A stretch of 64,000 bases of DNA from positions 72,219-136,218 of the forward strand of contig JBKJLI010000003.1 in NCBI GenBank assembly GCA_046597065.1, written 5' to 3'. Positions 1-43,625 of this stretch are shown piece after piece. The stretch is from Candidatus Saccharimonadia bacterium (GTDB taxonomy: Bacteria; Patescibacteriota; Saccharimonadia; UBA4664; SCTI01). The notes below the pieces were generated by a model that had not been told where the DNA came from, ran no database searches, and saw nothing but the letters and a program-made list of their open reading frames with translations. Position numbers and translations under genes: made by a program. The stretch's first letter is position 1; each line of letters starts with the position of its first letter.

Positions 1-481
1 CGACCCCAAGCCTGTCGGCCAGGTCGATCACCTGTGCGTCTTCGGGTTCTTGCAGTTCGGCCTGTTTGTTATCCCAACCCCGCGTATCAACCACGTTTGC
101 CAGTTGCTGAAGCTGGCTGCGCACCTCGCGTGGATCTCGCCGCTTCATTACCGGCTTGGGCTTGGGCGGCTCCACCTTAAATACCTCGGCGATCGGCTCT
201 TTATCCCACAACCGTACTTTTGGGCGCACAAAATACTGCAGCACCGCCACTAAATAAGTTTCTAGCGGCTGATCCTCGCGTTGATATAAACCCAGAGCTA
301 GCAGCGCGAGCATTGGTGGCAGCCCAATTACGATCCAAATTACGATTACGCTTTTAAAGATTGCAAAGGTTAGCAACCCGTAGCCCACGCCAATTACGGC
401 GTAGATGAACTGCTTTAGCGACAGCGGCCCCAAAATCTTATCTTCAGACTCCACGTTCTGTGGAACTTTGTACTGACCCAT
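1..481 (-). CDS. PrgI/VirB3-like small membrane protein of a conjugative T4SS; partial, the 3' end runs off the left edge
   Basis: Minus-strand frame is open from ATG (complement of 479-481) through position 1. N-terminus MGQYKVPQNVESEDKILGPLSLKQFIYAVIGVGYGLLTFAIF matches the PrgI-family start (M..YKVPQ.VE.EDKI.GP) followed by TM helices. AGGAGGG Shine-Dalgarno 6 nt upstream. Not in the ORF track because it is open-ended. Confidence 0.6.
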   Translation of the reverse strand, partial: MGQYKVPQNVESEDKILGPLSLKQFIYAVIGVGYGLLTFAIFKSVIVIWIVIGLPPMLALLALGLYQREDQPLETYLVAVLQYFVRPKVRLWDKEPIAEVFKVEPPKPKPVMKRRDPREVRSQLQQLANVVDTRGWDNKQAELQEPEDAQVIDLADRLGV

Positions 482-555
482 ACCCTCCTACCAGAAGATG
501 CTTATGTTTTTATTATATACAGCTAGGCTCTCGATTGATACATCGAGTTTGGGTC

Positions 556-2862
556 TTACAGACCAAGCGTGGTTTTAATGTCGACCCAGTCATCCTCTTC
601 TTCAAGCTTTCGCCTAACGTTTTGCTGAACGGTACCGGCTTGGCTTTGGAACATCCTTACTGTACGTGCCCAGACGTCTTTGCCATTATCGGTTTCATCG
701 AACTGGTCCTTGTGTCGGCCCAGCATTAGCAGAGCCGCTACGCGCTTATCGGCCGTCATAAAGTCTTGCTTGTTATTGGCATTAAAGGCCTCTTCCATTA
801 CGGCTGGATCAAGCGTTTCACCATTAATACGTGCCAGCTGCTGGGCAATATCAACCTCTCTGGCGCTATCCCCTGCTAGGGTAGATTTAGCTGCCAACTT
901 AAAGTTATCGGCCAGATAATCTTGCTTAAGACTCTTATTAGACATGGCTCGGTTCATACCGCCAATGGCATCCGCATTGGCATCACCCATTTTAATTGGA
1001 TTGCCCAGCGCGTTGGTTTTGGTAAGATCTGTGCTGTCAGAACGATGCCGTGCGTAAAGGCCTGATGCCTTGGGCATATTCTTACCATTTTCACGTAGCA
1101 ACATTTGATAGTCGGCTTCGCTGCCCGAGTTCATTATGGCGGTGGCGACCTCTTCGCCCACCAGGTTATTTTCGGCCAATCGCCGCACAAAAGCCTGGCG
1201 CTGCTCGAGCGTGTTGGTGTAATCAAGCAGCGACTCTGCGCCCTGGTCTTGTAGATGCTGGCGAGCCTTTTGGCGTTGCTGCGGGTCGCCGTAATAGGCC
1301 TGCAATGCCATGCGCTGGTTCATCATGTCGGCATCTTTTAGCTCACCCAAAGCCTTGGTGGTATCGGTTACCACCTGTGATTCGGCCCGTTGGCGATCAG
1401 CCGGGTGGGTGCTGCGGCCGGCGTAGGCCAGGCTGCCCGCAGCAAATAAGCCACGACCGCCAGCCCGTACGGCAGCGTTTTTACTACCCATCATGCCTCC
1501 AAGCTTGTCCTCTACCTGGCGAACTCTGGCGTTACGTTTGGCATCAAAGTTCTTTTGAGTTTCTTTGTAGCGGGCGCTGTCTTTAGCCTTTTTATTCTGG
1601 CCACCCACAAACTTGCTATAGCGATTGTAGGCTTCGGACATCAGGCCCCCAGCCCATTTAAAGGTTTGAGTAACCGCGTAAAAACAGGCAGCAAAAATCA
1701 TAATCTTAATAACACTCGAAGTCAGCGATTGTCCAATACTGCCCGCCGTCGATCCACTATTTACGCTTACCGGGATTAAGCTACCAACATTAGAGGCCAC
1801 ACTTAAAATGGCGATGATAATTGGATACATTAGTACCAGTCGCACCAGCATTGTGCGCCACTTGTTAAAGTACTGCTCGGTGTTTGGTAGCACCATAGCC
1901 GCAAAAGCCAATGGAGATACCACCACCAAAATGCCGATTAGCAAATAACGGATGGCCAGAGTGGCAATAAAGCCAATAACCGCAATGATAATTACCAGCA
2001 TTAATGGTGCCGCCAGCGCCCAGTTTACTAGCGCCAGCACCACTAGCGCAGCGCCAATTGCGGTAATGTCATTTACCAATAAACTGATACTAAAGCCGGT
2101 AGTACTCCCGCCATGCAAGGCGCTGTGAATTAGCGAACCAATACCCACACCCATCAGATTGCCAAAATCGATTATCAGTGCCGAAATTAAGAATGAGGCT
2201 TGCACTAATACCGCCGCCGCAATTAACCGCGGCAGCATACGACGAATCGAGTAGTTTTTTATGTCCATCGATGCGGTGTTGGCAAAAATGATGAACAAAA
2301 AGATAAAAATAAATGCTATGTTGGCTAGTGTTCGGATAGCATCCCAGGTGTTGTACAGGTCACCCGTAAAACCTAAGGGCTCAACCGCCAAAAAGTTACT
2401 AATTAAGTCTTTGCCACCATCGGCAAAGATTCGCGAAACCTTATCGAACAGTGGGCAAACCAGCAAACTAGAGGCACCTTGAGCCTCGGCACACTTTTCT
2501 TCATCAACGCCGCTAACTGGCGGAGCGTTGGGGTCGGCGGTGCCAGCAGTTTGGTTGTACTGCACGTTCTGTTGGCCCCCGGCTCCTTGGTAGCCAGCTA
2601 CGCAACCGGCTTTTATATCGTTTTTAAAGCTCTGGCAAGCAGTCGTTTGGCTTAGCCCGGCTTCTGACCCATTAAATCCGGCCTTACAGGCAGAGGTTTT
2701 GGCAGTACTATCGGTGCCACAGGCTTCTTCGATAGTGGCAGCGGCGTGAGCAGTTGGAGCCGCCACAACACTTACCCGCCCCAACAACGGGCCGGCCAGG
2801 ATGATTAAAATGTAGGCTAGCACGGCCAGTGCGGCCGCCCGCACCGGACGCTTAAAACGCAT
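556..2862 (-). CDS. VirB6/TrbL-like polytopic membrane protein with a Cys-rich N-terminal ectodomain and a roughly 400-aa low-complexity C-terminal tail
   Basis: 768 aa. Signal peptide, then a Cys-rich ectodomain, then about 6 TM helices (IAFIFIFLFIIFANTASMD...LVVVSPLAFAAMVLPNTEQYFNKWRTMLVRLVLMYPIIIAIL) resembling the TrbL/VirB6 core. Long Q/R/A/K-rich hydrophilic tail. Tandem paralog of 2946-5627. Confidence 0.55.
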   Translation of the reverse strand: MRFKRPVRAAALAVLAYILIILAGPLLGRVSVVAAPTAHAAATIEEACGTDSTAKTSACKAGFNGSEAGLSQTTACQSFKNDIKAGCVAGYQGAGGQQNVQYNQTAGTADPNAPPVSGVDEEKCAEAQGASSLLVCPLFDKVSRIFADGGKDLISNFLAVEPLGFTGDLYNTWDAIRTLANIAFIFIFLFIIFANTASMDIKNYSIRRMLPRLIAAAVLVQASFLISALIIDFGNLMGVGIGSLIHSALHGGSTTGFSISLLVNDITAIGAALVVLALVNWALAAPLMLVIIIAVIGFIATLAIRYLLIGILVVVSPLAFAAMVLPNTEQYFNKWRTMLVRLVLMYPIIIAILSVASNVGSLIPVSVNSGSTAGSIGQSLTSSVIKIMIFAACFYAVTQTFKWAGGLMSEAYNRYSKFVGGQNKKAKDSARYKETQKNFDAKRNARVRQVEDKLGGMMGSKNAAVRAGGRGLFAAGSLAYAGRSTHPADRQRAESQVVTDTTKALGELKDADMMNQRMALQAYYGDPQQRQKARQHLQDQGAESLLDYTNTLEQRQAFVRRLAENNLVGEEVATAIMNSGSEADYQMLLRENGKNMPKASGLYARHRSDSTDLTKTNALGNPIKMGDANADAIGGMNRAMSNKSLKQDYLADNFKLAAKSTLAGDSAREVDIAQQLARINGETLDPAVMEEAFNANNKQDFMTADKRVAALLMLGRHKDQFDETDNGKDVWARTVRMFQSQAGTVQQNVRRKLEEEDDWVDIKTTLGL

Positions 2863-2945
2863 TAATTTCCTATCTATCTTTTCAAGACGAATAGATAAGA
2901 GTACTACATCTGGCCAACAGATTCAAGGATAAGCTGTTTGATCAA

Positions 2946-5627
2946 TTAATCTGGTTTGAGGGCCCCATATGCATCTATTTTGTTTTCTACGTAGTACTTG
3001 TTAGTATCAAATCTTTCAAGTGCATCCTTTGCCTCGACTTGTTCGGCTGGAGTCAATCCACCCCCGGCTAGTTTTGCAGCAAGTGCTGCTCTGGTTGCTT
3101 GACCCTGTGCCCCGGTAAAAGCCTCACGGAATGCAATTCTACCGGCAGCGGAGGTTTTATCAGCCCTAACGCCCGTCAGGGCTTTCTCTACAGTAGTTGT
3201 ATCAAGATGAAGTATGGAGCCACCATCAATGCTCCATTTGCTATCGGCCCTGGCAGCCTCGCCAGGGTTCCCTCCGAAAGTACGAGCAACTGATCCGCCA
3301 TCGGCCAGCTGCTTAGCCAAACTTTCGCCGTTGGTTCTAGCTATAACACCACTTTGTACTTTGCCCTTAGCATCAAGACCACCGAATGCAACGGCAGGAT
3401 CCGACCCGAATAAATCGCCCGCATCAGTAGTTCCAAGCGAAAATACCTCTTCTGATGCTAATCGCTGTCGGCTCCCAGCCGGTGCTTTATCTAGCGCCAA
3501 TCTAACAGCTTCCACGCTGCTACCCTTACCATCTTGGGCTAATGTCCTCAGTGCAGCTGCTTGACCGTGTGTTGATCCAGCGTAGTGTGCAAGATGAGCA
3601 ACATTATCATTGGGATTATCTTTAGCGTATTGCTTTAAGCCTGCACTACCCATTGCAATTGCCTCTAGTAATTTGGGATTGGTAACACCAAGATCTTTTA
3701 GTTCTTTTTGTTGATCTTGAGTTAATTTCTGAGCGCTTCTTTGCTGCTCCAACTTATTTGATGTACCGGCACCAACTGCGAAACCGGCAACTCCACCAAG
3801 AGTGCCTCTAGCCACGCGTGAAGCAATATTAGTTCCACCAAGACCAGGAGTTTTATCTAGTTTGTCATTTAGCCACTGCCGTCGGCCGAGACGGCTGGAG
3901 TCTCTGTTTTGATTCATTCGCTGGTAGGCACCTGAATCTTTGAACTTGCCTTGTGAGGCTTTTCCAGCCGGGTTTGATATTCGATTAACCAAACCCGATG
4001 TAGCATTCATAACACCACCGGCCCACTTAAAGGTCCATGGAACCAAGAAGAATGCAATTATTGGGTAAAGCCCACTAACAATGGTTTGAATTGAACCACT
4101 AAACGCCGACCCACCACCGCTTGGCCTGGAAGCCGCCGCCAAAATAGTCGCCATTGAAAATATAATTACAATAAGAGGGTACATTAATATGACTCTGGTT
4201 AAAGTTTTCCACCAGGTTTTAAAGATATTTTCTGTCCCTGGCAATACCCAAGCTGCGAATGCTAGCGGAGAAAAGATAATTAATACGCTGATAATTAGTT
4301 TTCGTAACACTAAGGTAACGACAACTGATATAACACCAAAGAATGCACCAATTGCGAATAGCAGTATGGTCGGTGCCCCAACAACCCAGATAGCAACAGC
4401 GGCGAGTGCCCCTATACCTAAAATTGCACCAAGGGCGTCGCCAAGGAATGAAAAGATATTGCCGGCACTATTATCTCCAACTTTTGGCACGGCAACCTTA
4501 ACCAGTTCCTGGATGCCACCACCAAGAATATTGCCTATATCAATTAAGAGCGCACAGACCAAGAATGAAGCTTGTACTAAGATAGCTGCGGCCACCAGAC
4601 GGGGCAGCATTTTTTTAATAGTGTAAGCATTAACGTTGAACGACAACATATTTGCAATAAGGATATAAAGGAATATCAAGACAAAGGTAATATCTGCCAA
4701 AATAAGCATATTACCCCAGATTTTATATAGGCTATCCCCTAAGCTGTTTTGGCCGGTAACTATAAGTGGCTGATATTTAAGTTCATCGATAACTAGCCCT
4801 TTAAACAAAGCATTTGCCGTGTTAGATAGTAGCTCTACTGCAGGACAAAGCACCCATGCCAATTTACCGGCGCTTTGGTCGCAAGGGTCGTTATCGCCAC
4901 CACCACCACCGTTTCCGCTAGTATCGGTTTGATCGGCAATTTTGGTGCCATTAATTTCTTTTGAAGTCTGTGGGGTTGGCCAGGTGCCCTTAGCACTGCT
5001 AGATAGTTTGGTGTAGTTAGCAAGCTGTATTGTTTGAGATCCTTTGCGCAGATTTTGAGGGATACAACTAAGTGGTAGATCGCCATAATATTTGTTGCCA
5101 CCACTTTCGGGAGCACCGGCGGATTGTGGCCAATAAGCCTCAAAATAGTTAACTGTGCCGGATAAGTTTTTTACGTCGGCTAGGTCGGGCGGCCCGGCAA
5201 AGTATTTAACCGCAATTTTTAAATAGATATGGTAAATTTTGGCGCCACCGGCGGCCACAATCTTGTTGTTTGAGCTGTCGCAGTAGTAGTCGCCATAGTA
5301 GCTGACCGTACGGCTACCTGCGGATGGAGTTTGAAAATCGTCGGCATTAGAGCCGGCGGCAAAGGTTACCGGTGCGCTGTTATTGATCTTGGCATACACC
5401 GTGGTGTACTGCATGCCATCTGTAAAGTCTGATAAAGCGCTACTGCCAGTGGTAACCGATTTTTTGATTTCAGCCATGTGGGCTGGGTCCATGTAGACGA
5501 TGTAGGAGTCACCGGCGGCATGTGCAGCAGGAGTCAGGCCTATAATCACGGCGGGCGCAATCGACCAAAACAGCATAACGGCTGCAGCAATAATTGATGG
5601 CGGATTCGCCCACCTCTTCATAAGCAT
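2946..5627 (-). CDS. VirB6/TrbL-like polytopic membrane protein, tandem paralog
   Basis: TM core aligns closely with the upstream paralog (KKMLPRLVAAAILVQASFLVCALLIDIGNILGGG; LIISVLIIFSPLAFAAWVLPGTENIFKTWWKTL). Start chosen at MLMKRW (signal-peptide-like) rather than the ORF-track ATG at 5657. Gly-rich and Cys-containing ectodomain; long low-complexity C-terminal tail. Confidence 0.55.
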   Translation of the reverse strand: MLMKRWANPPSIIAAAVMLFWSIAPAVIIGLTPAAHAAGDSYIVYMDPAHMAEIKKSVTTGSSALSDFTDGMQYTTVYAKINNSAPVTFAAGSNADDFQTPSAGSRTVSYYGDYYCDSSNNKIVAAGGAKIYHIYLKIAVKYFAGPPDLADVKNLSGTVNYFEAYWPQSAGAPESGGNKYYGDLPLSCIPQNLRKGSQTIQLANYTKLSSSAKGTWPTPQTSKEINGTKIADQTDTSGNGGGGGDNDPCDQSAGKLAWVLCPAVELLSNTANALFKGLVIDELKYQPLIVTGQNSLGDSLYKIWGNMLILADITFVLIFLYILIANMLSFNVNAYTIKKMLPRLVAAAILVQASFLVCALLIDIGNILGGGIQELVKVAVPKVGDNSAGNIFSFLGDALGAILGIGALAAVAIWVVGAPTILLFAIGAFFGVISVVVTLVLRKLIISVLIIFSPLAFAAWVLPGTENIFKTWWKTLTRVILMYPLIVIIFSMATILAAASRPSGGGSAFSGSIQTIVSGLYPIIAFFLVPWTFKWAGGVMNATSGLVNRISNPAGKASQGKFKDSGAYQRMNQNRDSSRLGRRQWLNDKLDKTPGLGGTNIASRVARGTLGGVAGFAVGAGTSNKLEQQRSAQKLTQDQQKELKDLGVTNPKLLEAIAMGSAGLKQYAKDNPNDNVAHLAHYAGSTHGQAAALRTLAQDGKGSSVEAVRLALDKAPAGSRQRLASEEVFSLGTTDAGDLFGSDPAVAFGGLDAKGKVQSGVIARTNGESLAKQLADGGSVARTFGGNPGEAARADSKWSIDGGSILHLDTTTVEKALTGVRADKTSAAGRIAFREAFTGAQGQATRAALAAKLAGGGLTPAEQVEAKDALERFDTNKYYVENKIDAYGALKPD

Positions 5628-5688
5628 AAGTGTAATTGATTTGGGCTCGCATTGCACATCGAGCGCTTATCAGGATAGAATAGGCCCA

Positions 5689-6087
5689 ATGATAAGCGCT
5701 TTAAATCAACGACTAGTCCAGACCGCTGTTTACGCCAGTGCAGTAATAGCTGCAGCTATGCCAGCTGTCGCCCAGGCGGCGGCCGACTCTTGTGGCGGGG
5801 TTAAGGTTAGTTCGGCACTTTCTGGTTTGTGCAAAGACAGCCAGGCCAACCCGATCTTTGCGTTGGCCTCTGCCGGTATTTACTTTTTTAGCTCTCTGTT
5901 CGGCTTGTTGCTTGTGCTAGTAATTGTGATTTCGGGCATTCAATACATTACTTCGGCCGGTAGTTCCGACGGCACCAAAGAAGCTAAGGAACGTTTAAAG
6001 GCGGCCGTTACCGGATTAGTACTGTTCATACTTATGTTTGCCATCCTTCAACTACTATTACCTGATAGCGTGAAGCTTTTCCGATGA
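5689..6087 (+). CDS. Small secreted two-TM pilin-like protein (TrbC/VirB2-like), paralog 1 of 8
   Basis: Signal peptide, Cys pair in a variable N-terminal segment, and the conserved C-terminal module ...GIQYITSAGSSDGTKEAKERLKAAVTGLVLFIL. Start taken at Met17 of the ORF; TTG at 5641 is the alternative. Divergent from the VirB6-like gene. Confidence 0.6.
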   Translation: MISALNQRLVQTAVYASAVIAAAMPAVAQAAADSCGGVKVSSALSGLCKDSQANPIFALASAGIYFFSSLFGLLLVLVIVISGIQYITSAGSSDGTKEAKERLKAAVTGLVLFILMFAILQLLLPDSVKLFR

Positions 6088-6413
6088 TTCTACTCCCCCA
6101 CTTTGTTGAGTTTGCTCGCCAATCCTGGCCCCCCAGTCTGTACAACGGTTTAACCAATACCAAAGGCGACGTGCAAATTACCAAGTTGACTGACTTTTTA
6201 ACCATTATTGCCAACTTAATCCAGATTTTGATGTCGATTTCAGCCGTTTTAGCTGTCATCTTTATAGTTTGGTCGGGCATACAGTTCGCGGCTTCTAGTG
6301 GCGACCCCGGCCGGGTAAAAGAGGCCCGTAACGGCTTAATCAACGCCATTATTGGTCTGATAATTTCGGGCGGTGCTTACTTACTAGTCGACTTTTTTGC
6401 GAGGCAGTTTTAA
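6084..6413 (+). CDS. Pilin-like two-TM protein, paralog 2
   Basis: Conserved module SGIQFAASSGDPGRVKEARNGLINAIIGLII. ATGA overlap with the upstream gene indicates translational coupling. Confidence 0.6.
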   Translation: MILLPHFVEFARQSWPPSLYNGLTNTKGDVQITKLTDFLTIIANLIQILMSISAVLAVIFIVWSGIQFAASSGDPGRVKEARNGLINAIIGLIISGGAYLLVDFFARQF

Positions 6414-6730
6414 TGATTGGCGCCAAGCTTGCAGCCGACCTACAGGGTTGTACCGGCCCCAACTGCGTTGATACCCCAGACCATATTAATCTTATAAGCA
6501 ACGTATCATTGGGTAGTGGTGCTACCGGCATCATTAACGTCATGACCTTAATAGCCATTGTGGTGGCAACCATATTTTTAATGATTGCCGGTATCAGGTT
6601 TGTGACCGGCGGCAGTAATGCCCAACAAATTGCTGGTGCTCGTAACACCATTACTTATGCAATTATTGGCATGATTGTGGCGATTCTAGCCCGCATTATT
6701 GTTGGGTTTATCTTACAAAACAGTCCCTAA
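6413..6730 (+). CDS. Pilin-like two-TM protein, paralog 3
   Basis: Module AGIRFVTGGSNAQQIAGARNTITYAIIGMIVAIL. Cys pair CTGPNC in the variable N-terminus. TAATG overlap with the upstream gene. Confidence 0.6.
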   Translation: MIGAKLAADLQGCTGPNCVDTPDHINLISNVSLGSGATGIINVMTLIAIVVATIFLMIAGIRFVTGGSNAQQIAGARNTITYAIIGMIVAILARIIVGFILQNSP

Positions 6731-6760
6731 GCTTTACACACTCCTGGAGCTTCAGATACA

Positions 6761-7183
6761 ATGCAGGCAATGAAAGCAGTTATGTTCAGGCAGGCGGCGG
6801 TAACCATGTTGATGCTAACGCTCGGCCTTTTTGCAGCACCGCTAGCCTTTGCCGATCAAAGCGGTAAGATCAGCCAACCAGCTTGTAAAGCTGCAGCCGA
6901 TGCCGGTCAGGCCGCTCCACCAGGTTGTAACGGCACTACTCTTGAAAGTACGGGTACAACCACCGGATACTTAGATGTATTAATGAACGCCTTGGTGTTT
7001 GTTGGCGCCGCCACGGCCGTTATCTTTATAATAGTCGGTGGAATTCGTTTTATGACTGCAACCGGCGACCCCGGCCGTATCAAGCAGGCAAAAGATACTG
7101 TGCTTTACGCCGTGCTAGGCTTAGTGGTGCTATTATTAGTGCGCTTTATTATCGCCTTTGTGGTTGGTAGTGTTAAGGTATAG
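6761..7183 (+). CDS. Pilin-like two-TM protein, paralog 4
   Basis: Signal peptide. Cys pair PACK...PPGCNG. Module GGIRFMTATGDPGRIKQAKDTVLYAVLGLVVLL. Confidence 0.6.
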   Translation: MQAMKAVMFRQAAVTMLMLTLGLFAAPLAFADQSGKISQPACKAAADAGQAAPPGCNGTTLESTGTTTGYLDVLMNALVFVGAATAVIFIIVGGIRFMTATGDPGRIKQAKDTVLYAVLGLVVLLLVRFIIAFVVGSVKV

Positions 7184-7190
7184 GATAAAT

Positions 7191-7589
7191 ATGATGACCA
7201 AGTTAAAACGATCACTTAAAACAATTTTGACCGCCATGATGTTTGGTGTAATGCTGCTGCCGGCAGTATCATTTGCCGCAACAACTCCTCCAGTACCAGC
7301 ATCTGGCACCAACGCCGCCGCTTGCGATGGTGCTAAGGCCGTTGGCGCCACCTGTACAGACACCGGGCTTAAAGGCAGCCTTACCGCCATTTTTGAGGCC
7401 TTATTTTATATTATTGGCGCAATCGCGGTATTAATTATTATTTTGGCCGGTATCTACTACATCACCAGCACCGGCGACTCTGCGCGCATTAAGCGCGCCA
7501 AAGACACCATGCTTTATGCAGTGATTGGCCTAGCTCTGACCATATTAGCCCGGGCTATCGTTGGCTTTGTTATTGGCAGATTAGCCTAA
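7191..7589 (+). CDS. Pilin-like two-TM protein, paralog 5
   Basis: Start at MMTKLKRSL (signal peptide). Cys pair ACDG...ATCTD. Module AGIYYITSTGDSARIKRAKDTMLYAVIGLAL. Confidence 0.6.
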   Translation: MMTKLKRSLKTILTAMMFGVMLLPAVSFAATTPPVPASGTNAAACDGAKAVGATCTDTGLKGSLTAIFEALFYIIGAIAVLIIILAGIYYITSTGDSARIKRAKDTMLYAVIGLALTILARAIVGFVIGRLA

Positions 7590-7951
7590 TGCAGCGAGCG
7601 TTGGTAGCCATAGCTGGCACCGCACTTTGGCCACTAGCTGCAACCGCTGCAACCGTTGGCGAAGGTCTATGCGAAGGGTCGGGCGCCTGTACAACTCCTG
7701 GTACACCCGTTAATCCCAACGGCACGCTCGAAAAGCAAATTGGTAACATTTCTAATATAATTCTTTATCTCGCCGCCGCACTGGCAGTAATAGTAATAAT
7801 CTTCGGCGGCGTTCGATACATTACTTCAACTGGCGATGCGGGTCGGGTTAAGCAAGCCAAAGACACCATTACTTATGGAGTGATCGGCTTGGCGATTGCC
7901 ATTTTGGCCTATGCGATCGTAAGATTTGTAATTTCCAAACTAATAACCTAG
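7589..7951 (+). CDS. Pilin-like two-TM protein, paralog 6
   Basis: TAATG coupling with the upstream gene. Cys pair CEGSGACT. Module GGVRYITSTGDAGRVKQAKDTITYGVIGLAIAIL. Confidence 0.6.
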   Translation: MQRALVAIAGTALWPLAATAATVGEGLCEGSGACTTPGTPVNPNGTLEKQIGNISNIILYLAAALAVIVIIFGGVRYITSTGDAGRVKQAKDTITYGVIGLAIAILAYAIVRFVISKLIT

Positions 7952-7962
7952 GAATCAATACC

Positions 7963-8322
7963 ATGAAAATCACATCCAAACTCACCTACGCCTCACTGCT
8001 AGCCTTAAGTTATGCGCCAGCTGCTCTTGCTGCTGGCGATCCATTAAAAGAGGGCTCAACTGCCGCCAAACCCGACGGGATTGGCAAGGCCGATGATCTT
8101 ACCACCTCGTTTCATACCATTGCCAACATCTTAATCTTTCTAGTGGGAGCTATTTCTGTAATCGTTTTGATTTACGGTGGTTTCTTATATGTTGTATCAA
8201 CCGGAGATCAGGGCAGAGTAAAGCAAGCCAAAGAAACCATTCAATACGCCATAATAGGCATCATCGTCGCCATATTGGCTTATGCAATCGTAGCCTTTGT
8301 AACTACTAGCTTAATAAAGTAA
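7963..8322 (+). CDS. Pilin-like two-TM protein, paralog 7 (no Cys pair)
   Basis: Signal peptide. Module GGFLYVVSTGDQGRVKQAKETIQYAIIGIIVAIL. Confidence 0.6.
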   Translation: MKITSKLTYASLLALSYAPAALAAGDPLKEGSTAAKPDGIGKADDLTTSFHTIANILIFLVGAISVIVLIYGGFLYVVSTGDQGRVKQAKETIQYAIIGIIVAILAYAIVAFVTTSLIK

Positions 8323-8395
8323 GCGCTTTCAGGTTGTTACCAGATATGCTACAATCGGCTCAAAATCAGTCAATTTAATTCAAAAAGGAAAACTC

Positions 8396-8830
8396 GTGAG
8401 TACTCCAACCCCAAAACAAGTCGTTAGAAAGGTCGCCGAAGCCGGTGTCTTCTTTAGCACCTTCCTACCAGTAACCGCTTTGGCCGCTACCTCTACCGGT
8501 AACTGCGACCCTACTACCGGCAATATCGCCGATGGTGCTAAGTGCTCTCAGGCCGCCCAAAGTCAGCCCAACAATCTATTTGGCCCTGATGGTGTGTTCC
8601 AGCAGATTTCTAATATCCTAATCTTCTTGGTCGGCGCCATCTCGGTTATTATGTTGATCTTTGGTGGGCTGCGCTACGTAATTTCGAGTGGTGAAAAAGG
8701 CGCGGTAGAGGGTGCCAAGAACACCATCCTTTATGCCGTGATCGGTATTGTAGTCGCCATTCTGGCCTACGCCATTGTTGGCTTTGTTACCGATAGCTTA
8801 ACCCAAAACGTTGGCTCTACCACTCCGTAA
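8396..8830 (+). CDS. Pilin-like two-TM protein, paralog 8
   Basis: GTG start with AAAGGAAAA upstream. Cys pair GNCDP...AKCSQ. Module GGLRYVISSGEKGAVEGAKNTILYAVIGIVVAIL. A possible internal promoter with an extended -10 (TGCTACAAT) lies at about 8350. Confidence 0.55.
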   Translation: MSTPTPKQVVRKVAEAGVFFSTFLPVTALAATSTGNCDPTTGNIADGAKCSQAAQSQPNNLFGPDGVFQQISNILIFLVGAISVIMLIFGGLRYVISSGEKGAVEGAKNTILYAVIGIVVAILAYAIVGFVTDSLTQNVGSTTP

Positions 8831-8850
8831 CTCAATCTAAATTGACATTA

Positions 8851-8876
8851 AAAAAGACCCCGCGGGGTCTTTTTTA
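8851..8876 (+). terminator. Rho-independent terminator closing the pilin-like array; bidirectional-looking, with an A-run upstream
   Basis: AAAAAGACCCCGCGGGGTCTTTTTT: perfect 14-nt GC-rich palindrome flanked by A- and T-runs. Confidence 0.8.
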
Positions 8877-8893
8877 ATTGGTAACACCAGAGT

Positions 8894-9331
8894 TTAGCTG
8901 GCGATTACGCGGATCTTCTTAACCTTGTCTTGGATGATCTTGGGGATGGCAATACTAAGTACACCATTCTTTAAGCTAGCCTCTGCCTTATCGGCGTTAA
9001 CGCTAACTGGCATTATGATTGAGCGGCTAAAGGCGCCCCAGTAGCATTCCTGCACGTAGTAGTTTTCGCGATCAACGGTGCTATCTTCGACCCGCTCGCC
9101 ACGAATGGTAACTACGTCTTCGGCAATAGCGACTTCTAGATTCTTAGGATCGACTCCGGCGATTGGCGCTTTAATTACCACGCTGTCTTTGGTTTGATAA
9201 ACATCAACTGCTAGCTGACCCTCTACGCCATCATCGGGGTCTTCTTCTTCGAGCCAGTCGGTGCTTACCACTTCGTCGTCATTTATAAAATCATCTTGCA
9301 AGATATCGTCTGAATCGGGTTTTTTTGCCAC
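8894..9331 (-). CDS. Hsp20/alpha-crystallin family small heat-shock protein
   Basis: Acidic N-terminus, then the alpha-crystallin domain (VDVYQTKDSVVIKAPIAGVDPKNLEVAIAEDVVTIRGER...ASLKNGVLSIAIPK). Confidence 0.85.
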   Translation of the reverse strand: MAKKPDSDDILQDDFINDDEVVSTDWLEEEDPDDGVEGQLAVDVYQTKDSVVIKAPIAGVDPKNLEVAIAEDVVTIRGERVEDSTVDRENYYVQECYWGAFSRSIIMPVSVNADKAEASLKNGVLSIAIPKIIQDKVKKIRVIAS

Positions 9332-9481
9332 CAGTAGTCTCCTTTGCTTTATAGCTTATGAGGCATTGCACCCTCACCGGCGCATCCTATCTTACCGTCA
9401 TTATAGTCATAGACATCAGGGCAACGCAACAATTCCGGTAATTTATAACTTAATCTCATTTTAATACGCCTCCCCTATCCT

Positions 9482-10156
9482 ATGTATATGTTGCTTTATC
9501 GATTGGCAAAACTGCTGGCTCCACCTTCATGTGTTGGCTGTGGTATACAAAATGACGTCTTTTGCACAAGCTGCGTACTCAGCCTAATGGCTCCACCACG
9601 CGTATGTGTGTGGTGCGGGTACAAATGTAGTGCAATGGCCTGCAAGAGTTGCCTAAGGCAGCGTGAAGTTAATTCAGTTGTGGTTGTTGCCGCCTATCGT
9701 GAAGCAGCCAAGGCCCTAGTACATTCGGCCAAGTTTAACCACAACCGGCTCGCTGCGGAGGCAATTGGACTACAACTTGCAACATATGCCATGGGGCTAA
9801 GCGTTGAGTTGGTTACAACAGTGCCAACACTACCGGCGCACATTCGTAGCCGCGGATACGACCATGCAGAAGCAATCGGTAAGTCTACTGCTATGTTAAT
9901 AAAACGTCCTTACAAACGCTTGTTGCGCCGGCTAAAAACCACAACTCAGGTGGGCAAAAATCGACAAGAAAGGCTTAACCAAGCTGCAAACAGCGTTAAT
10001 TTAATTAAACCATTTAAACCTAAATCAGTTCTGTTGATTGATGATGTCGTCACAACTGGTGCTACAATTGCCGATTGCGTGGCGGCATTAAACTGGGATG
10101 GTAATAAAAATGTACATGTCATTGCTTTTGCTTTTCAGCCAAGTGACCCTGCTTAA
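9482..10156 (+). CDS. comFC: ComF/ComFC-family competence protein (double zinc ribbon plus phosphoribosyltransferase domain)
   Basis: N-terminal CxxC...CxxC pairs (CVGCG..CTSC; CVWCG..CKSC). C-terminal type I PRTase motif VLLIDDVVTTGATIADC. Confidence 0.8.
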   Translation: MYMLLYRLAKLLAPPSCVGCGIQNDVFCTSCVLSLMAPPRVCVWCGYKCSAMACKSCLRQREVNSVVVVAAYREAAKALVHSAKFNHNRLAAEAIGLQLATYAMGLSVELVTTVPTLPAHIRSRGYDHAEAIGKSTAMLIKRPYKRLLRRLKTTTQVGKNRQERLNQAANSVNLIKPFKPKSVLLIDDVVTTGATIADCVAALNWDGNKNVHVIAFAFQPSDPA

Positions 10157-28773: not shown

Positions 28774-28863
28774 GGAGAGGTGGCCGAGTGGCTGAAGGCG
28801 CACGCTTGGAAAGCGTGTATGCGGGCAACCGTATCGTGGGTTCGAATCCCACTCTCTCCGCCA
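28774..28863 (+). tRNA. tRNA-Ser (anticodon GGA); the island described next starts immediately 3' of it
   Basis: GGAGAGGTGGCCGAGTGGCTGAAGGCG CACGC TTGGAAA GCGTG plus a long variable arm plus GTGGGTTCGAATCCCAC TCTCTCC G CCA. Confidence 0.9.
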
Positions 28864-29006
28864 GTTATTATTTTCTTTTTCGACCCGTCCCCCTAACCCT
28901 TATATAAGGTGGAAGGGGCGGGATTTTTGAACCAAAAATAAGCCCTCAAAATCATCAAGTTCGAATCATTCCCATTCGCATGGGGAGGGGATTCGAACTG
29001 GCCTAG

Positions 29007-30344
29007 CTAAATTTTTTTACGCCTGGTTTTCTTCTCAACGTAGACCTTGAGATCCTTTAAGAAGATTTCGCCCGTCACATAGCTCAGGATCTCGCGCTTT
29101 TCTTCTCTCGTACCCTCTTGCAAGACGTATTTGGCGTAAGCTCGCAGATCAATCGTCGGCATACTCGACTCCACCGGACTTTGCCCTAGAATCCCATTGG
29201 CAAATTTCTCATAGCGCGCGATTTCTTGCTTAAACTTCTCTTGAGCGCCAATCTCATCGATTGGCAGTTCATCAATCAGGCTGAGGAGCTCAATCATGAT
29301 ATCACCCTCGCGAATGTAGGGCTGACTACAGTCCAAGTCATTTGCCCGGCCACAGTGGTAGTAGACATAGTGCCTAACCTGACCGTCTTTTAAGATCTTG
29401 CGTTTCTCCTCGGCTGTAATCCCGGTTTTGCAGGCTCCGCATTTCATAATCCTCGTGAATCCGAACTCTTTGCTGCCTGCTGGTGCTTTCGGTGCTACTG
29501 TCAGCTGCACCTGGACTTCGTCAAACAGCTCCTTAGTGATCAATGGCTTATGTTTACCCTCATGCCAGGTATCGATGGTTGTAGGGTACTTAAACCGTCC
29601 GTAGTAAAAGGGGTTCTTTAGCGTCCGGTAGATGTGGCTTAAAACCAATCCCTGGCCGCTTTTAGTTTCAAATCCACTGGTATCGAGCCAGCGTTTGAGG
29701 TCTCGCCCCGTAGCCGCTTGTTTGGCGACTCTCTCGAACATCTCGATAATGACTGGTGCACGTTCCGGATCGATAATAATCTTATCCTCACCAAGGCCGT
29801 TATTCAGATAGCCAATTGGCGCTACACCTGGTCGCCAACCGTTGGCGGCTTTGTTACGCAAGCCCCGGATAACGTTCAACCCTCGATTGTCGTTCTCAAG
29901 TTTGGCCTGGCTACCGAGAATCATAAGCAGGAACTTCTCGTTGGGTGAATTGGTGAAGGTTTGCCCATGGGTACGAATTTCCTGCAAACCACCCGAGTCC
30001 ATCAGGTCGACCAGCACCCCCAGGTCGCCCGCCGATCTGGAAAGTCGATCTGGCGCCCAGGTTATGATTGCATTGAAATAGCCGAGCCTAATGTCTTGAA
30101 TCATGCGGTTAAAGATTGGCCTGGTGCCTGCCACCTTTGATGAGTGGCTCTCTTTGCGGATCTCCGCTACCTCAATGCCCCAGTGATCCGCTAGCAGCGT
30201 CATTTCCTTGATCTGCTGCTCAATCGATAGCGCTTGGCGTTCGTCCTGTTCGCTCGATTTGCGGGCGTATAGGCAGTAGATCAGTTTGGTCGCGACGGGC
30301 GCGGTTTGTATCTGTTGTGGGATAGTCGATTCCATTACCAACAC
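29007..30344 (-). CDS. Large serine recombinase (resolvase/invertase catalytic domain, recombinase domain and zinc ribbon)
   Basis: Catalytic region YARKSSEQDERQ...ITWAPDRLSRS. C-terminal CGACKTG...YYHCG zinc ribbon. 445 aa. Confidence 0.85.
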   Translation of the reverse strand: MLVMESTIPQQIQTAPVATKLIYCLYARKSSEQDERQALSIEQQIKEMTLLADHWGIEVAEIRKESHSSKVAGTRPIFNRMIQDIRLGYFNAIITWAPDRLSRSAGDLGVLVDLMDSGGLQEIRTHGQTFTNSPNEKFLLMILGSQAKLENDNRGLNVIRGLRNKAANGWRPGVAPIGYLNNGLGEDKIIIDPERAPVIIEMFERVAKQAATGRDLKRWLDTSGFETKSGQGLVLSHIYRTLKNPFYYGRFKYPTTIDTWHEGKHKPLITKELFDEVQVQLTVAPKAPAGSKEFGFTRIMKCGACKTGITAEEKRKILKDGQVRHYVYYHCGRANDLDCSQPYIREGDIMIELLSLIDELPIDEIGAQEKFKQEIARYEKFANGILGQSPVESSMPTIDLRAYAKYVLQEGTREEKREILSYVTGEIFLKDLKVYVEKKTRRKKI

Positions 30345-30373
30345 AGTACCGCCACGGGGTACTAAGTCTAGTC

Positions 30374-31915
30374 TTATTTTTTCTCGTCGTCCCGATACTT
30401 AATTCCCCAAAAATCGAAGTACTCACTGCTATCATCCCCCAACCAGCCGAATCCAAAGGTCACTTCCCATTTGACGTTCACTTGAATGTAATTTAGCCCC
30501 ATCGACATGGCATCAGCCAAGTCATCATGCTTCTCGACGCCAAAACCAACTAACTGCTGAATGATCGGTGCTACGGCCCGATCCTTAGGGAAATAGACTG
30601 TCCTCTGTTCAAATAGCGGGCTAGCCAGTTGCAAGCGAGCTCTCTTGTCGGCATGGATCTTAATACCTTTCGATTCAATATCCCGGTCTTTGAGCTGTTC
30701 AATCACTGCCGCCTGGTACTGGACTTGCTCGACGAGTACTCGTGGCCGTTTTTCATCGTTATGATCTAGCGCCCGGTACATCAGCGCAATCGTATCGAGA
30801 GTCTCCAGATGTGACATTTTTCGGTTAATAAAGGTCTTATCAATGTAATAGCGCCGATCCTCTAGCTTGTAGCCAAACAAGTGAATCAGCACAATCGCCG
30901 TATAATCAGCCGTCGCGCTTTGGGAAATAGCCAGGTCAACTGAAAGAAAAGAGTTAATGTACTCATTAGCCTCGGTTTTCTCAGGCAACTGATCGTAGTA
31001 CTGAATCCAGGCCGGATCGATTACCTGATCCTCGTCGGGGATAATCTTCAGCATGTACTCCCGCTGCCAGGTAATATCGTCACCAACCTTGCGACGCTCG
31101 ACCGCAATTGCTTTCATGTCTTCGTATTTACCCGGCCACAGAATGTGACCTTTGTTGTCGACAAGCGGGTATGCCCGGAAGATCCCATCCAAGCGCTTGT
31201 CTTCAAAGCGCTGCTTAAGCCGCATCAGTAACGAGTCCTCGTGGAGTAGGTTGCCGACAATAATCATCTTAGTGTTACGGTCACCAGCCGGAATAACTTC
31301 ACCCATCAGCCACTTAAAGACTTTGTCACGGCCTTCACGGGTCTTAGTCGACATCATATCCTCAACATCATCGACAATCACCAGGTCTGGCCGGTACTCA
31401 CCGTGCCGAATACCCCGAATACTCTGATCGGTTGAGGCCGCACTAATTCGGGCGCCGTACTTGGTCAGCACCAGCGAGCTTGAGCCCCACTCGTCACTAA
31501 ATTCTTCGAGTGGTCCGAAATCCTTACGCAGGATATCGTTAGTCTCAAACTCCCGCTTGATGTTAGCCAAGTGCATCCTGGCTTGGGCCTGTGTCTGGCT
31601 GAGTAATAGAACGAACTTCTTCAGTGGCGTCCCCAGCACTGCCCAGATTGGGTAGGAAGAAGTAACGATGGTCGATTTGCCTGAGCCGCGGAAGGCTACG
31701 ATTACAGCGTGTTTAATAGCTGGATCCTGGGTAATTTCAAACACTTCACGCTGGAAGTCGGCCGTTGCGTATTTGACATAACGACCAAGGTAAATGTGGA
31801 AGAACCAATAGTGACTCTGCCGGGCTGTAGCCATCCTGATACTGCGGTCTGTCCGAATAGATTCCAGCAGTGGGTTAGGTATTATACTGGGAGGATTGAT
31901 CAGTTGCTCATTCAT
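30374..31915 (-). CDS. Phage terminase large-subunit-like ATPase-nuclease (PBSX/Terminase_6-like), copy 2
   Basis: Walker A VAFRGSGKST and Walker B DLVIVDDVED in the N-terminal ATPase, plus a C-terminal nuclease-like region. About 70% identical to the adjacent copy over the first roughly 400 aa. Confidence 0.65.
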   Translation of the reverse strand: MNEQLINPPSIIPNPLLESIRTDRSIRMATARQSHYWFFHIYLGRYVKYATADFQREVFEITQDPAIKHAVIVAFRGSGKSTIVTSSYPIWAVLGTPLKKFVLLLSQTQAQARMHLANIKREFETNDILRKDFGPLEEFSDEWGSSSLVLTKYGARISAASTDQSIRGIRHGEYRPDLVIVDDVEDMMSTKTREGRDKVFKWLMGEVIPAGDRNTKMIIVGNLLHEDSLLMRLKQRFEDKRLDGIFRAYPLVDNKGHILWPGKYEDMKAIAVERRKVGDDITWQREYMLKIIPDEDQVIDPAWIQYYDQLPEKTEANEYINSFLSVDLAISQSATADYTAIVLIHLFGYKLEDRRYYIDKTFINRKMSHLETLDTIALMYRALDHNDEKRPRVLVEQVQYQAAVIEQLKDRDIESKGIKIHADKRARLQLASPLFEQRTVYFPKDRAVAPIIQQLVGFGVEKHDDLADAMSMGLNYIQVNVKWEVTFGFGWLGDDSSEYFDFWGIKYRDDEKK

Positions 31916-31927
31916 CTGGTGGACTCC

Positions 31928-33496
31928 TTAAAAATTATCGTTCAATGTTACCCAACGGTTGTTCTCAAACTCACTAAAGCCTGCCCACAGGCTATGGCGA
32001 CCAACCATCACCGTGCCGGTCGAACGAACGCCATCATTCTCAAGTACCCGCTGGAGCAAGATTGCAAACGCATCGGCCAAGTCGTCATAACGCTCACTAC
32101 CGAAGCCGGTCAGCTGGTGGATGAGCTGCTCACAGCCTTGGCGCGGGAAAACTACCTTACCGCTTTCGACCAAATGGCTGACTGCCGTTAGGCGAGCCCG
32201 TTTATCCTGGCCGTAGACTTTTACGCCCTCGGCCGAGTAGTTCTCCCGATTCAGTTGTTCGATCAGAGCACTTTGGTAGCCCACATCTTCGATGTAGAGC
32301 TTGACGCTGTGTTTGGTGCCAAGCCGTGCTACGAGATCCCGGGCTTTGTCCAAGGTCTGTAAATGAGTCAGATGGGCGTTAACCGGCCGAGGTAAAATAT
32401 AGATCTTGAGATCTTCGACGTTGCCGTGTACTTGGGCTGACACCATGGCCGTGCAGTCAGCGGTTGTCCGCAGTGAAATAGCCAAATCAATGCCGACGGC
32501 CGTGTAGCGATAGTGATCCTGCTCCTGGGAGGGCAATTCGTCGTAGTAGCGAATCCAAGCCGGAAAGATAACCTGATCGTCTTCGGGAACGATCTTAAGC
32601 ATGAACTCGCGTTGCCAAGCTTTCTCATTGCCAAGCTTACGTTTGGCAGTTTCGATGGCATCGTGATTGGGGTATTTACCAGGCCAGAGAATCTGGTTGT
32701 TTGGTGATACTACAGGGTACGCTCTGAAAACACCATTCAACCGCCCTGATTCAAAACTTGCGCGCAGTCGCATCAAAAGTGAGTCTTCGTGCAGCAGGTT
32801 TCCAACCATCACCACCTTGGTGTTCTGGTCTCCTGCTGGCAGCACCTCGCCGGTTAACCAGTTGTAGGTCTTATCCCGGCCTTCCTGAGTTTTGGTCGAC
32901 ATCATATCTTCGACATCGTCGCAGATGATGAGATCTGGCCGATGTTCACCGTGCCGCAACCCGCGAATACTCTGATCAGTTGATGCGGCACTGATCCGTG
33001 CACCATACTTTGTGAGTACCAGCGAACTTGAACCCCACTCGTCGCTTTCTTCTTCAAGCGGTCCGAAATCTGCCCGAAGCAGCTCATTAGCCTCAAATTC
33101 GCGCTTGATGTTGGCCAAATGGAGTCGGGCTTGTTGTTGGGTTTGGCTCAAGATCAGGATGAACTTTTTATGCTGGCTACCAAGTACTGCCCAAATTGGG
33201 TAGGACATGGTAACGACCGTCGATTTGCCGGAACCTCGAAAGGCCACGATTACCGCATACTCGATCTCCTGATTCTCGGTTAACATGAAGATTTCTTTTT
33301 GGAAGTCGGCTGTTGGGTGCTTTAAGTAGCGGCTGAGATAAAGGCTGAAGAACCAGGTGTGACTGCGCTCGGCTGTCGCCATCCGGATCTTACGGTTGCC
33401 CCGAATATGCTCCCAGAGGTCGGGAGTAAGACTGGCCTCAACATCGGCTGGCAAAGTGTTATTCATGGACTTGCTCCTCGGTAGTAATCGGCTCAA
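31928..33496 (-). CDS. Phage terminase large-subunit-like ATPase-nuclease, copy 1
   Basis: Same motifs (VAFRGSGKST; DLIICDDVED). Tandem paralog of 30374-31915. Confidence 0.65.
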   Translation of the reverse strand: MSRLLPRSKSMNNTLPADVEASLTPDLWEHIRGNRKIRMATAERSHTWFFSLYLSRYLKHPTADFQKEIFMLTENQEIEYAVIVAFRGSGKSTVVTMSYPIWAVLGSQHKKFILILSQTQQQARLHLANIKREFEANELLRADFGPLEEESDEWGSSSLVLTKYGARISAASTDQSIRGLRHGEHRPDLIICDDVEDMMSTKTQEGRDKTYNWLTGEVLPAGDQNTKVVMVGNLLHEDSLLMRLRASFESGRLNGVFRAYPVVSPNNQILWPGKYPNHDAIETAKRKLGNEKAWQREFMLKIVPEDDQVIFPAWIRYYDELPSQEQDHYRYTAVGIDLAISLRTTADCTAMVSAQVHGNVEDLKIYILPRPVNAHLTHLQTLDKARDLVARLGTKHSVKLYIEDVGYQSALIEQLNRENYSAEGVKVYGQDKRARLTAVSHLVESGKVVFPRQGCEQLIHQLTGFGSERYDDLADAFAILLQRVLENDGVRSTGTVMVGRHSLWAGFSEFENNRWVTLNDNF

Positions 33497-33881
33497 TTTG
33501 CCCCAACCCGGCCAAGCGCAAAGCCTCTTGGACGACCGCTTCTTGCTCTGGAGTTAACGTTTGATCTTCAACCTTAAGCCGTCCATCAATCTGGACTCTG
33601 GTGGCATAGGTCGGGTGATGGTGCTTCAACCAGAAAATTATGCCAGTCATGTTGCCGTCTCGGATTGCAGCCATCAGCTGGCTCTCAGCCATGTCATTAA
33701 CCAGTGAAGCTCCCTCGCTGAGTGCAAGATCGGCTGCCTCGGCAAACTCTGCATCATCTTTATGCCAACGGTAGTAGGAAGCCCGGCCGAGACCGGTCTT
33801 CTCGCAAGCTAGCTGTACAATCGGCGTTTTGCGTAATTGGTCAATCAACAGCGCTTTATTCCGAGTGGTTTTATCCGACAT
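33459..33881 (-). CDS. Terminase small-subunit-like HTH protein
   Basis: 140 aa. N-terminal HTH (LRKTPIVQLACEKTGLGRASYYRWHKDD). Located immediately upstream (in transcription order) of the TerL-like genes. Confidence 0.5.
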   Translation of the reverse strand: MSDKTTRNKALLIDQLRKTPIVQLACEKTGLGRASYYRWHKDDAEFAEAADLALSEGASLVNDMAESQLMAAIRDGNMTGIIFWLKHHHPTYATRVQIDGRLKVEDQTLTPEQEAVVQEALRLAGLGQIEPITTEEQVHE

Positions 33882-35897: not shown

Positions 35898-35970
35898 AAC
35901 CTGATTTTCGGTTATGAGAAGGGAGAATAGTACCTGAATTGTTCAAGATAAGTTCTGGAAAAGTTCCGTA

Positions 35971-39545: not shown

Positions 39546-39727
39546 CCACGGCAGATCCCCCTTATGCTTTCTATCCATATCGTTTTAGCTTAAAATACTC
39601 GGGGCGGAACTCAGGTGCCGCCTTTGGTTTATTACGTTCGTTGACATATCCAGGCCGGATTATTGCTTTAAGGGTGATTAGCGGTAATCCGGTCTGGAAC
39701 AGACCCTTACAAAAGGAGGGATGCCAA

Positions 39728-40636: not shown

Positions 40637-40637
40637 C

Positions 40638-41381: not shown

Positions 41382-41395
41382 CCAAGGAGATCAAG

Positions 41396-43500: not shown

Positions 43501-43625
43501 GTTCCCGGCAACTCCAAGCCGTACGCTCTGTACGTGAACTGGAACCCGTTCAACCTCAAGGCCAAGCTGAACGCCAACTGGGTCAGCAACCGCAACAACA
43601 AGTGGGCGGCGCCGGTGCTCAGGGA
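43501..43625 (+). repeat. DGR template repeat (TR), 125 bp, rich in AAC codons
   Basis: Same frame as VR. Codons AAC/AAG sit at every diversified position. The 85-aa ORF 43417-43674 in the track is this repeat, not a gene. Confidence 0.9.

Follow-up and report, generated by a model that had tools for sequence, protein, structure and literature searches.

A tandem array of eight probable VirB2-like pilin genes in a type IV secretion locus of a Saccharimonadia bacterium

The stretch of DNA analysed here, a window of 64,000 nucleotides (nt) from contig JBKJLI010000003.1 of a Candidatus Saccharimonadia bacterium, carries eight consecutive small genes on the plus strand, spanning 5641–8830 as longest open reading frames (ORFs) and 5689–8830 with the preferred start codons, as described in an initial annotation made from the letters alone. 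With a probability of about 0.8, we read them as paralogous VirB2-like pilins of family PF18895 that belong to a chromosomal, origin-proximal type IV secretion system (T4SS) of Saccharibacteria, similar to those of Gram-positive (monoderm) bacteria. Profile hidden Markov model (HMM) searches, proposed in the initial annotation for each paralog, matched all eight proteins to Pfam PF18895 (T4SS_pilin) with 33.9–51.9 bits against a gathering score of 26.6, and an independent precomputed annotation concurred with PF18895 for the array proteins. A search with gene 8 gave 1234 homologous proteins at E ≤ 1e-3, and PF18895 is present on all 120 of these that were listed, two of them being labelled 'pilin' by NCBI. 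The array is real and of a kind already described, an eight-gene instance of the patescibacterial T4SS pilin array.

Two other identities were considered for the eight proteins. The first is that of small membrane proteins from another family, for example holins or immunity proteins of bacteriocins, lying beside a T4SS by chance; an assignment of this kind had been named in the initial annotation as an outcome that would overturn it. The sole match to such a family was a marginal one of gene 8 to the phage holin model TIGR01598 (E = 0.049; 13.9 bits, the cut-off being 39.7), the neighbouring genes include none for lysis or bacteriocins, and PF18895 in eight of eight proteins together with T4SS synteny across 27 genomes effectively refutes this identity, whose probability is negligible. 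Small Sec-secreted effectors delivered by the T4SS would be in keeping with the signal peptides on six of the eight proteins and with an earlier reading of TM7x, for which a transcriptome paper called six genes of the type IV secretion region putative effectors. Every protein, however, has two hydrophobic helices of about 30 residues and a pilin profile match, and the arrays in question have since been reinterpreted as pilins; the TM7x 'Sec secreted array' is equated with a pilin array by Quiñonero-Coronel 2025 (Microb Genom, PMC12102498). On the strength of the profile matches, the hydrophobicity and the conserved T4SS synteny, we rejected the effector reading as very improbable.

Hydropathy analysis revealed the same architecture in all eight proteins, namely two hydrophobic segments of about 30 residues each after a variable N-terminus, joined by a short, basic and conserved loop. 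An AlphaFold2 (AF2) model of gene 8, built with 58 orthologues, predicts a helical hairpin (residues 67–96 and 101–140, pLDDT ~90) preceded by an N-terminal part of low confidence. The shared module had been called near-invariant, which overstates its conservation: core identity between paralogs is 20–70% with a mean of 37%, the eight-way alignment has four invariant columns, and the pattern given for the module matches exactly in none of the eight genes, genes 1 and 3 missing 8–9 of its 25 specified positions. In the N-terminal region, identity between paralogs averages 23%. Paralog identity climbs along the array, from gene 1 as the most divergent of the eight to genes 7 and 8 as the closest pair, and the best paralog pair reaches 63% identity over 81 amino acids (aa).

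A signal peptide had been claimed for every protein and an N-terminal cysteine pair as the usual state. Signal peptides with an A-x-A-type site are predicted for six of the eight, the exceptions being genes 2 and 3, and before helix 1 the cysteine count is exactly two in all genes but 2 and 7, which have none. Gene 1 encodes a signal-like N-terminus, Cys35/Cys48 and two transmembrane helices, as judged by sequence and hydropathy; genes 4, 5, 6 and 8 combine a signal peptide with Cys42/Cys56, the pair ACDG...TCTD, the motif CEGSGAC (CEGSKSC in the closest relative) and Cys37/Cys50, respectively, and gene 7 has a signal peptide without cysteines. Gene 2 has neither, and since its orthologues in the three closest genomes (L002, L003 and L008) are 94–97 aa long and likewise leaderless, its lack of a leader is a conserved trait. 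Gene 3 opens straight at its cysteine-pair segment (CTGPNC) without a signal peptide; its positional counterpart L008.3, of 125 aa, has a leader, so the absence is specific to the window genome. Gene 3 would be either an N-terminally truncated copy or, like gene 2, a protein inserted via N-tail translocation.

The cysteine pair extends beyond the window. Counted in the 60 residues before helix 1 of 123 scorable family ORFs from related loci, cysteines number two in 78, none in 30 and one in only 1, at a background frequency of 0.7%, and this even-number pattern indicates a probable disulfide. Among 58 orthologues of gene 8, exactly two cysteines are found in 57 and Cys50 is kept in 98%, although identity to the protein of the window is only 41% in the mature N-terminal segment, compared with 73% in the helices. 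Comparison of dN/dS between the N-terminal segments and the C-terminal module, suggested in the initial annotation, was possible in part: the ratios are unusable and positive selection is not assessable because synonymous sites are saturated (pS 0.61–0.89), and relative dN is usable. Against the closest relative found (gene 8 83% identical), dN of the mature N-terminal segment is 0.16 for gene 8, 0.62 for gene 7 and 0.89 for gene 6, with cores at 0.06–0.16. From these contrasts and the cysteine conservation in gene 8, it follows that the N-termini are paralog-specific, some of them fast-evolving and at least one constrained.

To place the array among its relatives, we collected 27 loci by a degenerate-pattern scan, taking one genome per species; the pattern came from a four-sequence alignment, the eight-way paralog alignment having no stretch conserved enough to serve as one. 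Nearly all of these loci are labelled Saccharibacteria, Saccharimonadales, Saccharimonadia or Nanosyncoccus, except for one Nomurabacteria and two 'uncultured bacterium'. An HMM built from the eight paralogs detected 3–9 pilin ORFs, mostly tandem, in 27 of 27 loci, and the order VirB6-like gene, pilins, convergent Hsp20 and ComF is kept in nearly all. The eight copies had been thought unusual, which is true in comparison with classical conjugation systems but not within the lineage, where multi-copy arrays are normal since every related locus has one. The three closest genomes carry 9 (L002), 8 (L003) and 8 (L008) genes collinear with those of the window, to which they are linked by reciprocal best hits at positions 1, 2, 5, 6 and 8. 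In a neighbour-joining tree positions 1–5 cluster by position, and bootstrap values are 94 for position 1, 69 for position 2 and 82 for the last position, the orthology of position 5 being one of reciprocal best hits only. These genomes are distant from the window genome (valyl-tRNA synthetase (ValRS) 48–65% and VirB6-like proteins 30–44% identical), and the pilin orthologues, at 40–64% identity, are comparable to ValRS and not unusually fast-evolving overall. Between genomes the best conserved paralog is gene 8. By these comparisons, positions 1, 2 and the last, at the ends of the array, are orthologous between genomes that have diverged deeply.

The locus has a counterpart in Southlakia epibionticum ML1, whose T4SS cluster SEML1_0006–0019 is essential for epibiotic growth (Wang 2023, Cell, PMC10633639). 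Within it, SEML1_0014–0019 are six PF18895 pilins, each scored GD/ES/ES by transposon sequencing (Tn-seq) (PMC10633639). Compared by gene order and family taken from supplementary tables, the window locus resembles SEML1_0011–0021 in having two VirB6-like genes, divergent PF18895 pilins, convergent Hsp20 and ComF. RecF, wall hydrolases, a split VirB4 and PrgI lie upstream in both, a tRNA-Ser lies past ComF, both loci are chromosomal and origin-proximal, and in neither vicinity was a relaxase or coupling protein seen. The two differ in pilin count, eight in the window and six in S. epibionticum, and in an NTF2/VirB8-like gene between the VirB6-like genes, which S. epibionticum has and the window does not. 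Among T4SSs, the patescibacterial one is currently alone in having been shown essential to its own bearer's growth.

Arrays of this kind have been surveyed. PMC12102498 reports 441 VirB2 arrays of 2–11 genes from 383 assemblies, with Saccharimonadia and Microgenomatia especially rich in them. These arrays are composed of tandem PF18895/PF04956 genes near virB4 and have a within-array identity of 25% on average and 54% at maximum; antigenic variation or host-range adaptation is discussed for them. The window array is like these in its tandem PF18895 genes near virB4 and its low within-array identity; the locus unites at least two tandem pilin genes with a nearby virB4, further MPF_FATA-type parts (PrgI/VirB3, VirB6, wall hydrolase) and the replication origin in a patescibacterium, the features that define such an array, in which one non-pilin gene at most may separate the pilin genes. 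It also recalls Bartonella and Anaplasma phagocytophilum, named as a parallel in PMC12102498, in which tandem diverged VirB2 paralogs belong to host-associated T4SSs that translocate effectors and are non-conjugative. Those systems are diderm, of type MPF_T, and their paralogs are thought to provide antigenic variation, whereas the ends of the window array are conserved as orthologues. The present analysis adds the orthology of the end positions, the conservation of the two cysteines and the class of leaderless gene-2 proteins, none of which occurs in the passages of PMC12102498 retrieved by keyword; together with the control block described below, these points could guide deletion and structural experiments in cultivable relatives. 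The pilin array sets the patescibacterial T4SS apart from ancestral Gram-positive conjugation systems.

Because the end positions are orthologous over deep divergence, because N-terminal features are conserved in a group-specific manner and because genes are translationally coupled, we favour co-expressed, specialised, non-redundant subunits (base, shaft, tip or minor pilins of a mixed structure) over interchangeable antigenic variants, as a preference and not a demonstration. In the competing view, the genes would encode interchangeable major pilins, used singly or in varying mixtures for host-strain matching or host/phage evasion. Such a role would suit the divergence of the paralogs (mean identity 37% in the core and 23% in the N-terminal region), the N-termini of genes 6 and 7, which evolve several-fold faster than the cores (dN 0.62–0.89 against 0.11–0.16), and the variation of copy number from 3 to 9 between genomes, and it is raised in PMC12102498; a role of this kind has been proposed for the VirB2 paralogs of Bartonella and Anaplasma. 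We nevertheless judge it quite unlikely, since positions 1, 2 and the last are orthologous across genomes with ValRS 48–65% identical, the gene 8 N-terminus is constrained (dN 0.16, cysteine pair in 57 of 58 orthologues), three translationally coupled junctions argue for co-expression, and six of six S. epibionticum pilins score as essential, which is unexpected under redundancy, with polarity as a caveat. Among the options offered in the initial annotation, a mixed or antigenically varied surface filament or a set of alternative subunits for attachment to a host cell, antigenic variation is the least favoured on the grounds of the orthologous outer positions and the conserved cysteine pair.

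The resemblance to TrbC/VirB2-type pilins, on which the initial annotation was founded, held as far as membership of a pilin family, PF18895, is concerned; the scores against PF04956 (TrbC/VirB2) are all under threshold. Like the classical TrbC/VirB2/TraA proteins (PF04956; Agrobacterium T-pilin, F-pilin), the array proteins are small, with a long leader, two helices and a short basic loop, their termini are predicted outside, and VirB3, VirB4 and VirB6 homologues are encoded alongside. Unlike them, they have an N-terminal cysteine pair, a monoderm host and many paralogs in place of one major pilin, and their loop, with about 7 additional residues, is much better conserved. All eight also matched NF045849 (Mbov_0395 pilin-like, from a mycoplasma integrative and conjugative element) over nearly the whole 80-position model, with E = 5.5e-4 to 8.6e-10 and 19.6–38.2 bits, all under the 40-bit cut-off but consistently stronger than the sub-threshold PF04956 matches. 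The NF045849 family, which is found as a single copy in mobile elements, is likewise part of a wall-less/monoderm conjugation system, and its sub-threshold match, taken as a lead only, suggests that monoderm-type systems may not be entirely without pilin-like proteins.

That lead also bears on the possibility that the proteins are T4SS components forming a short, pseudopilus-like stalk or channel lining that spans membrane and wall, with no long pilus. The system is MPF_FATA-like (monoderm), a type generally without pili; the NF045849 scores exceed the TrbC/VirB2 scores and the mollicute elements belong to MPF_FATA; and there is no report of a pilus, a 2025 FEMS review (PMC12857230) discussing one, or a conduit, as a possibility. 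Yet the NF045849 scores stay under the 40-bit cut-off, and long, cysteine-looped, paralog-specific exposed segments would better suit surface display than a buried lining. We regard a short stalk as possible though rather improbable; it differs from our best explanation only in polymer length and location.

In the mechanism that we propose for the VirB2-like pilins, the operon would be transcribed from the short divergent control region, be translationally coupled in part and end at a shared terminator. Each product would enter the membrane as a hairpin whose basic loop, S-T-G-D-x-G-R-V-K-x-A-K, faces the cytoplasm and whose termini both lie outside, the orientation that the positive-inside rule predicts from the charged residues of the loop (R, K, K). 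Six products would lose a Sec leader to signal peptidase, those of genes 2 and 3 would insert via N-tail translocation, and the cysteine pair of the exposed N-terminal segment would form an extracytoplasmic disulfide. The VirB4 ATPase and a VirB6-like platform would extract the subunits and build from them a polymeric filament or conduit, which would cross the wall through an opening cut by the M23 and CHAP hydrolases and reach the host bacterium. By analogy with F- and T-pili, whose solved structures serve as the model for this placement, the filament would have the conserved helices and loop as its core and lumen and would display the paralog-specific N-termini on its exterior. We further suggest, tentatively and as a doubtful extension, that the paralogs are fixed, position-conserved and individually required subunits that co-assemble, in a monoderm epibiont, into a T4SS filament or conduit that is heteropolymeric and braced by disulfides. 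To our knowledge, the structurally characterised conjugative pili are all homopolymers built from a single pilin, and pili are believed to be absent from monoderm T4SSs, so a multi-subunit pilus of a monoderm T4SS would be without precedent. Such a heteropolymeric filament, if real, could be a physical route for the uptake of host material by Saccharibacteria.

Several results weigh against the pilin assignment and the filament built on it. The best PF04956 score, that of gene 5, is 25.2 bits against a cut-off of 27.9; genes 1, 3 and 7 have no match at E ≤ 0.1, and the other matching genes reach 18.9–19.8 bits. In hhalign comparisons with a reference of seven annotated MPF_T VirB2/TrbC proteins taken from plasmids (A5), A1 aligned weakly with the first helix, loop and second helix in register (probability 24.9%, E = 7.8e-4) and A3 weakly at a probability of 2.6%. 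Searching the PDB by sequence profile with the eight paralogs returned chance-level membrane proteins and no conjugative pilin, Foldseek against PDB structures returned no conjugative pilin, and the two-helix hairpin is a very common fold. Mid-array positional orthology is poorly supported (bootstrap 4–50 for positions 3–5), the putative signal peptides and the putative disulfide are deduced from sequence and cysteine counts, and the essentiality of the upstream S. epibionticum pilins could be a polar effect on downstream genes. We know of no filament seen for any patescibacterial T4SS. That the proteins work like a VirB2 pilin is still the best reading, homology to classical VirB2 being suggested through the sub-threshold evidence.

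Divergent from the array, as the initial annotation had stated, are two VirB6-like genes and a PrgI-like gene, all on the minus strand (Table 1). VirB6-like gene b, which faces away from the pilin operon, encodes a multi-transmembrane centre and a long hydrophilic C-terminal extension, and 25 of the 27 related loci have homologous ORFs in the corresponding place. Genes a and b match the same ORF in related loci at ~30–44% identity, and neither has a Pfam or NCBIfam match. Their VirB6 identity is deduced from the structural matches of their positional counterparts in S. epibionticum: for SEML1_0013, the counterpart of gene b, the best one is a TrbL/VirB6 protein (Wang 2023 Table S2, PMC10633639), and for SEML1_0011, the counterpart of gene a, the structural match is a 'Type IV secretion system protein' (PMC10633639).

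Table 1. Positions of the pilin genes and of the features around them in the window.
Feature	Position	Strand	Description
Pilin gene 1	5689..6087	+	132 aa from ATG 5689; PF18895 33.9 bits
Pilin gene 2	6084..6413	+	109 aa; PF18895 50.8 bits
Pilin gene 3	6413..6730	+	105 aa; PF18895 37.2 bits
Pilin gene 4	6761..7183	+	140 aa; PF18895 43.4 bits; TrbC 18.9 bits
Pilin gene 5	7191..7589	+	132 aa from ATG 7191; PF18895 45.0 bits
Pilin gene 6	7589..7951	+	120 aa; PF18895 51.9 bits
Pilin gene 7	7963..8322	+	119 aa; PF18895 41.7 bits
Pilin gene 8	8396..8830	+	144 aa, GTG start; PF18895 39.0 bits
VirB6-like gene b	2946..5657	-	up to 903 aa; start probably an ATG in MLMK, ~5627-5633
VirB6-like gene a	556..2862	-	768 aa; paralog of gene b; identical protein on L001
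PrgI-family (VirB3-like) gene, 5' part	1..481	-	cut by window start; continues on L001
Conserved nucleotide block CTTCATAAGCATAAGTGTAATnGATTT	5615..5642	.	divergent control region / 5' end of VirB6-like gene b
Bidirectional intrinsic terminator	8848..8878	.	A6-GACCCCGCGGGGTC-T6; common to pilin operon and convergent Hsp20 gene

The locus continues beyond the window start on L001, a Logan contig from SRR31159421 that overlaps window positions 1–4205 over 4205 base pairs without mismatch. There the full PrgI-family protein has 285 aa (PF12666, 54.4 bits) and is followed by a TraC-like protein (248 aa), a VirB4-type ATPase (624 aa), an M23 protein (956 aa) and a CHAP protein (386 aa), then by an Ig-like protein, DciA, RecF and DnaN, so that the pilin locus is chromosomal and adjoins the replication origin. 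The VirB4-type ATPase (P-loop_TraG 92.4 bits, plus AAA_10 and DUF87) lies 1.1–3.0 kb past the window start; a T4SS ATPase near the locus, which the initial annotation had looked for, is thereby present. A scan of larger ORFs in the window and L001, which left out several of at least 180 aa, turned up no VirD4-like coupling protein or relaxase. VirB4 is encoded as two ORFs, the TraC-like N-terminal piece and the ATPase (L001 4551–7171, equivalent to window positions -2965 to -345), and because S. epibionticum shows the same split, with SEML1_0009 and SEML1_0008 as 882-nt and 1839-nt genes (PMC10633639), it looks conserved and not like a frameshift. Short reads of the same population gave an assembly in which L001 breaks inside VirB6-like gene b at window position 4205, and the pilin array sits on a separate 4.7-kb contig (L029, Logan SRR31159421) covering 4176–8876. 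Contig breaks around paralog arrays could lead surveys of metagenome-assembled genomes to under-count pilin arrays.

Start codons were checked with an independent gene caller, run on a metagenomic contig identical to the window. The longest ORFs of genes 1 and 5 open at TTG 5641 and TTG 7158, and the preferred starts are the ATG codons called at 5689 and 7191, each giving 132 aa. The sizes of 105–148 aa first assigned to the proteins hold at the lower end, the re-called starts giving 105–144 aa. For the same reason two of the apparent overlaps between neighbouring genes, 5641/5657 and 7158/7183, are longest-ORF artefacts, and those at 6084 (ATGA, genes 1 and 2), 6413 (TAATG, genes 2 and 3) and 7589 (TAATG, genes 5 and 6) stand; the other junctions are gaps of 7–73 nt, giving a range of -4 to 73 nt for the array. 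The GTG start of gene 8 has AAAGGAAAA before it.

Upstream of the array, the block CTTCATAAGCATAAGTGTAATnGATTT (~25 nt) is invariant in the window, L002, L003 and L008, whose proteins are only ~50% identical. Its exact 18-mer is confined to these four, and its pattern has 1 match in the window against 0.05 expected. The block is followed by ATTGCA and then by a TAGAAT box ending 9 nt upstream of the gene 1 ATG, and a promoter-like TGCACA-17-TAGAAT lies at 5653–5681. The region may be a shared divergent promoter/operator with very short or absent leaders. At the other end, between the stop of gene 8 and that of the convergent Hsp20 gene, the strong bidirectional terminator noticed in the initial annotation was borne out: the hairpin folds at -18.9 kcal/mol on the plus and -21.7 kcal/mol on the minus strand (z ~ -4.5), and none of the shuffled sequences folds as well. 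A consensus terminator scan of the window did not list this hairpin, for which the support is its folding.

Past the terminator, the convergent Hsp20 gene and a ComF-like phosphoribosyltransferase gene (8894–10156) are kept beside the array in nearly all 27 loci. Hsp20 is 80–84% identical in the closest genomes, far above its neighbours, and is scored essential in S. epibionticum (PMC10633639). The remaining window is ordinary chromosome, encoding ValRS, TsaD, FemAB, a Mur ligase, GroEL, PolA, DnaG and RpoD, and FemAB and the arginine deiminase family are Saccharibacteria-like content.

Three further elements were observed in the window. An integrated element probably occupies 28774–37502, adjoining tRNA-Ser(GGA); it encodes a large serine recombinase (29007–30344, minus strand), tandem paralogous terminase-large-subunit-like proteins (30374–31915 and 31928–33496, both minus), a DNA methylase (33871–34629, minus) and a ParB-methylase fusion (34626–35897, minus). 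Positions 39641–43136 form a high-GC island (GC 0.57–0.61 against ~0.49 elsewhere) encoding dihydroorotate dehydrogenase (39641–40636) and orotidine monophosphate decarboxylase (40638–41381), and since de novo pyrimidine genes are unexpected in Saccharibacteria, it was probably acquired horizontally. The island contains the target gene of a diversity-generating retroelement (42324–45045), whose 125-nt variable repeat (42999–43123) is located at the 3' end of a 270-aa ORF without Pfam match. The template repeat (43501–43625) lies 500 nt downstream and is followed by a 363-aa reverse transcriptase (43954–45045), and all mismatches between the repeats fall at adenines of the template copy.

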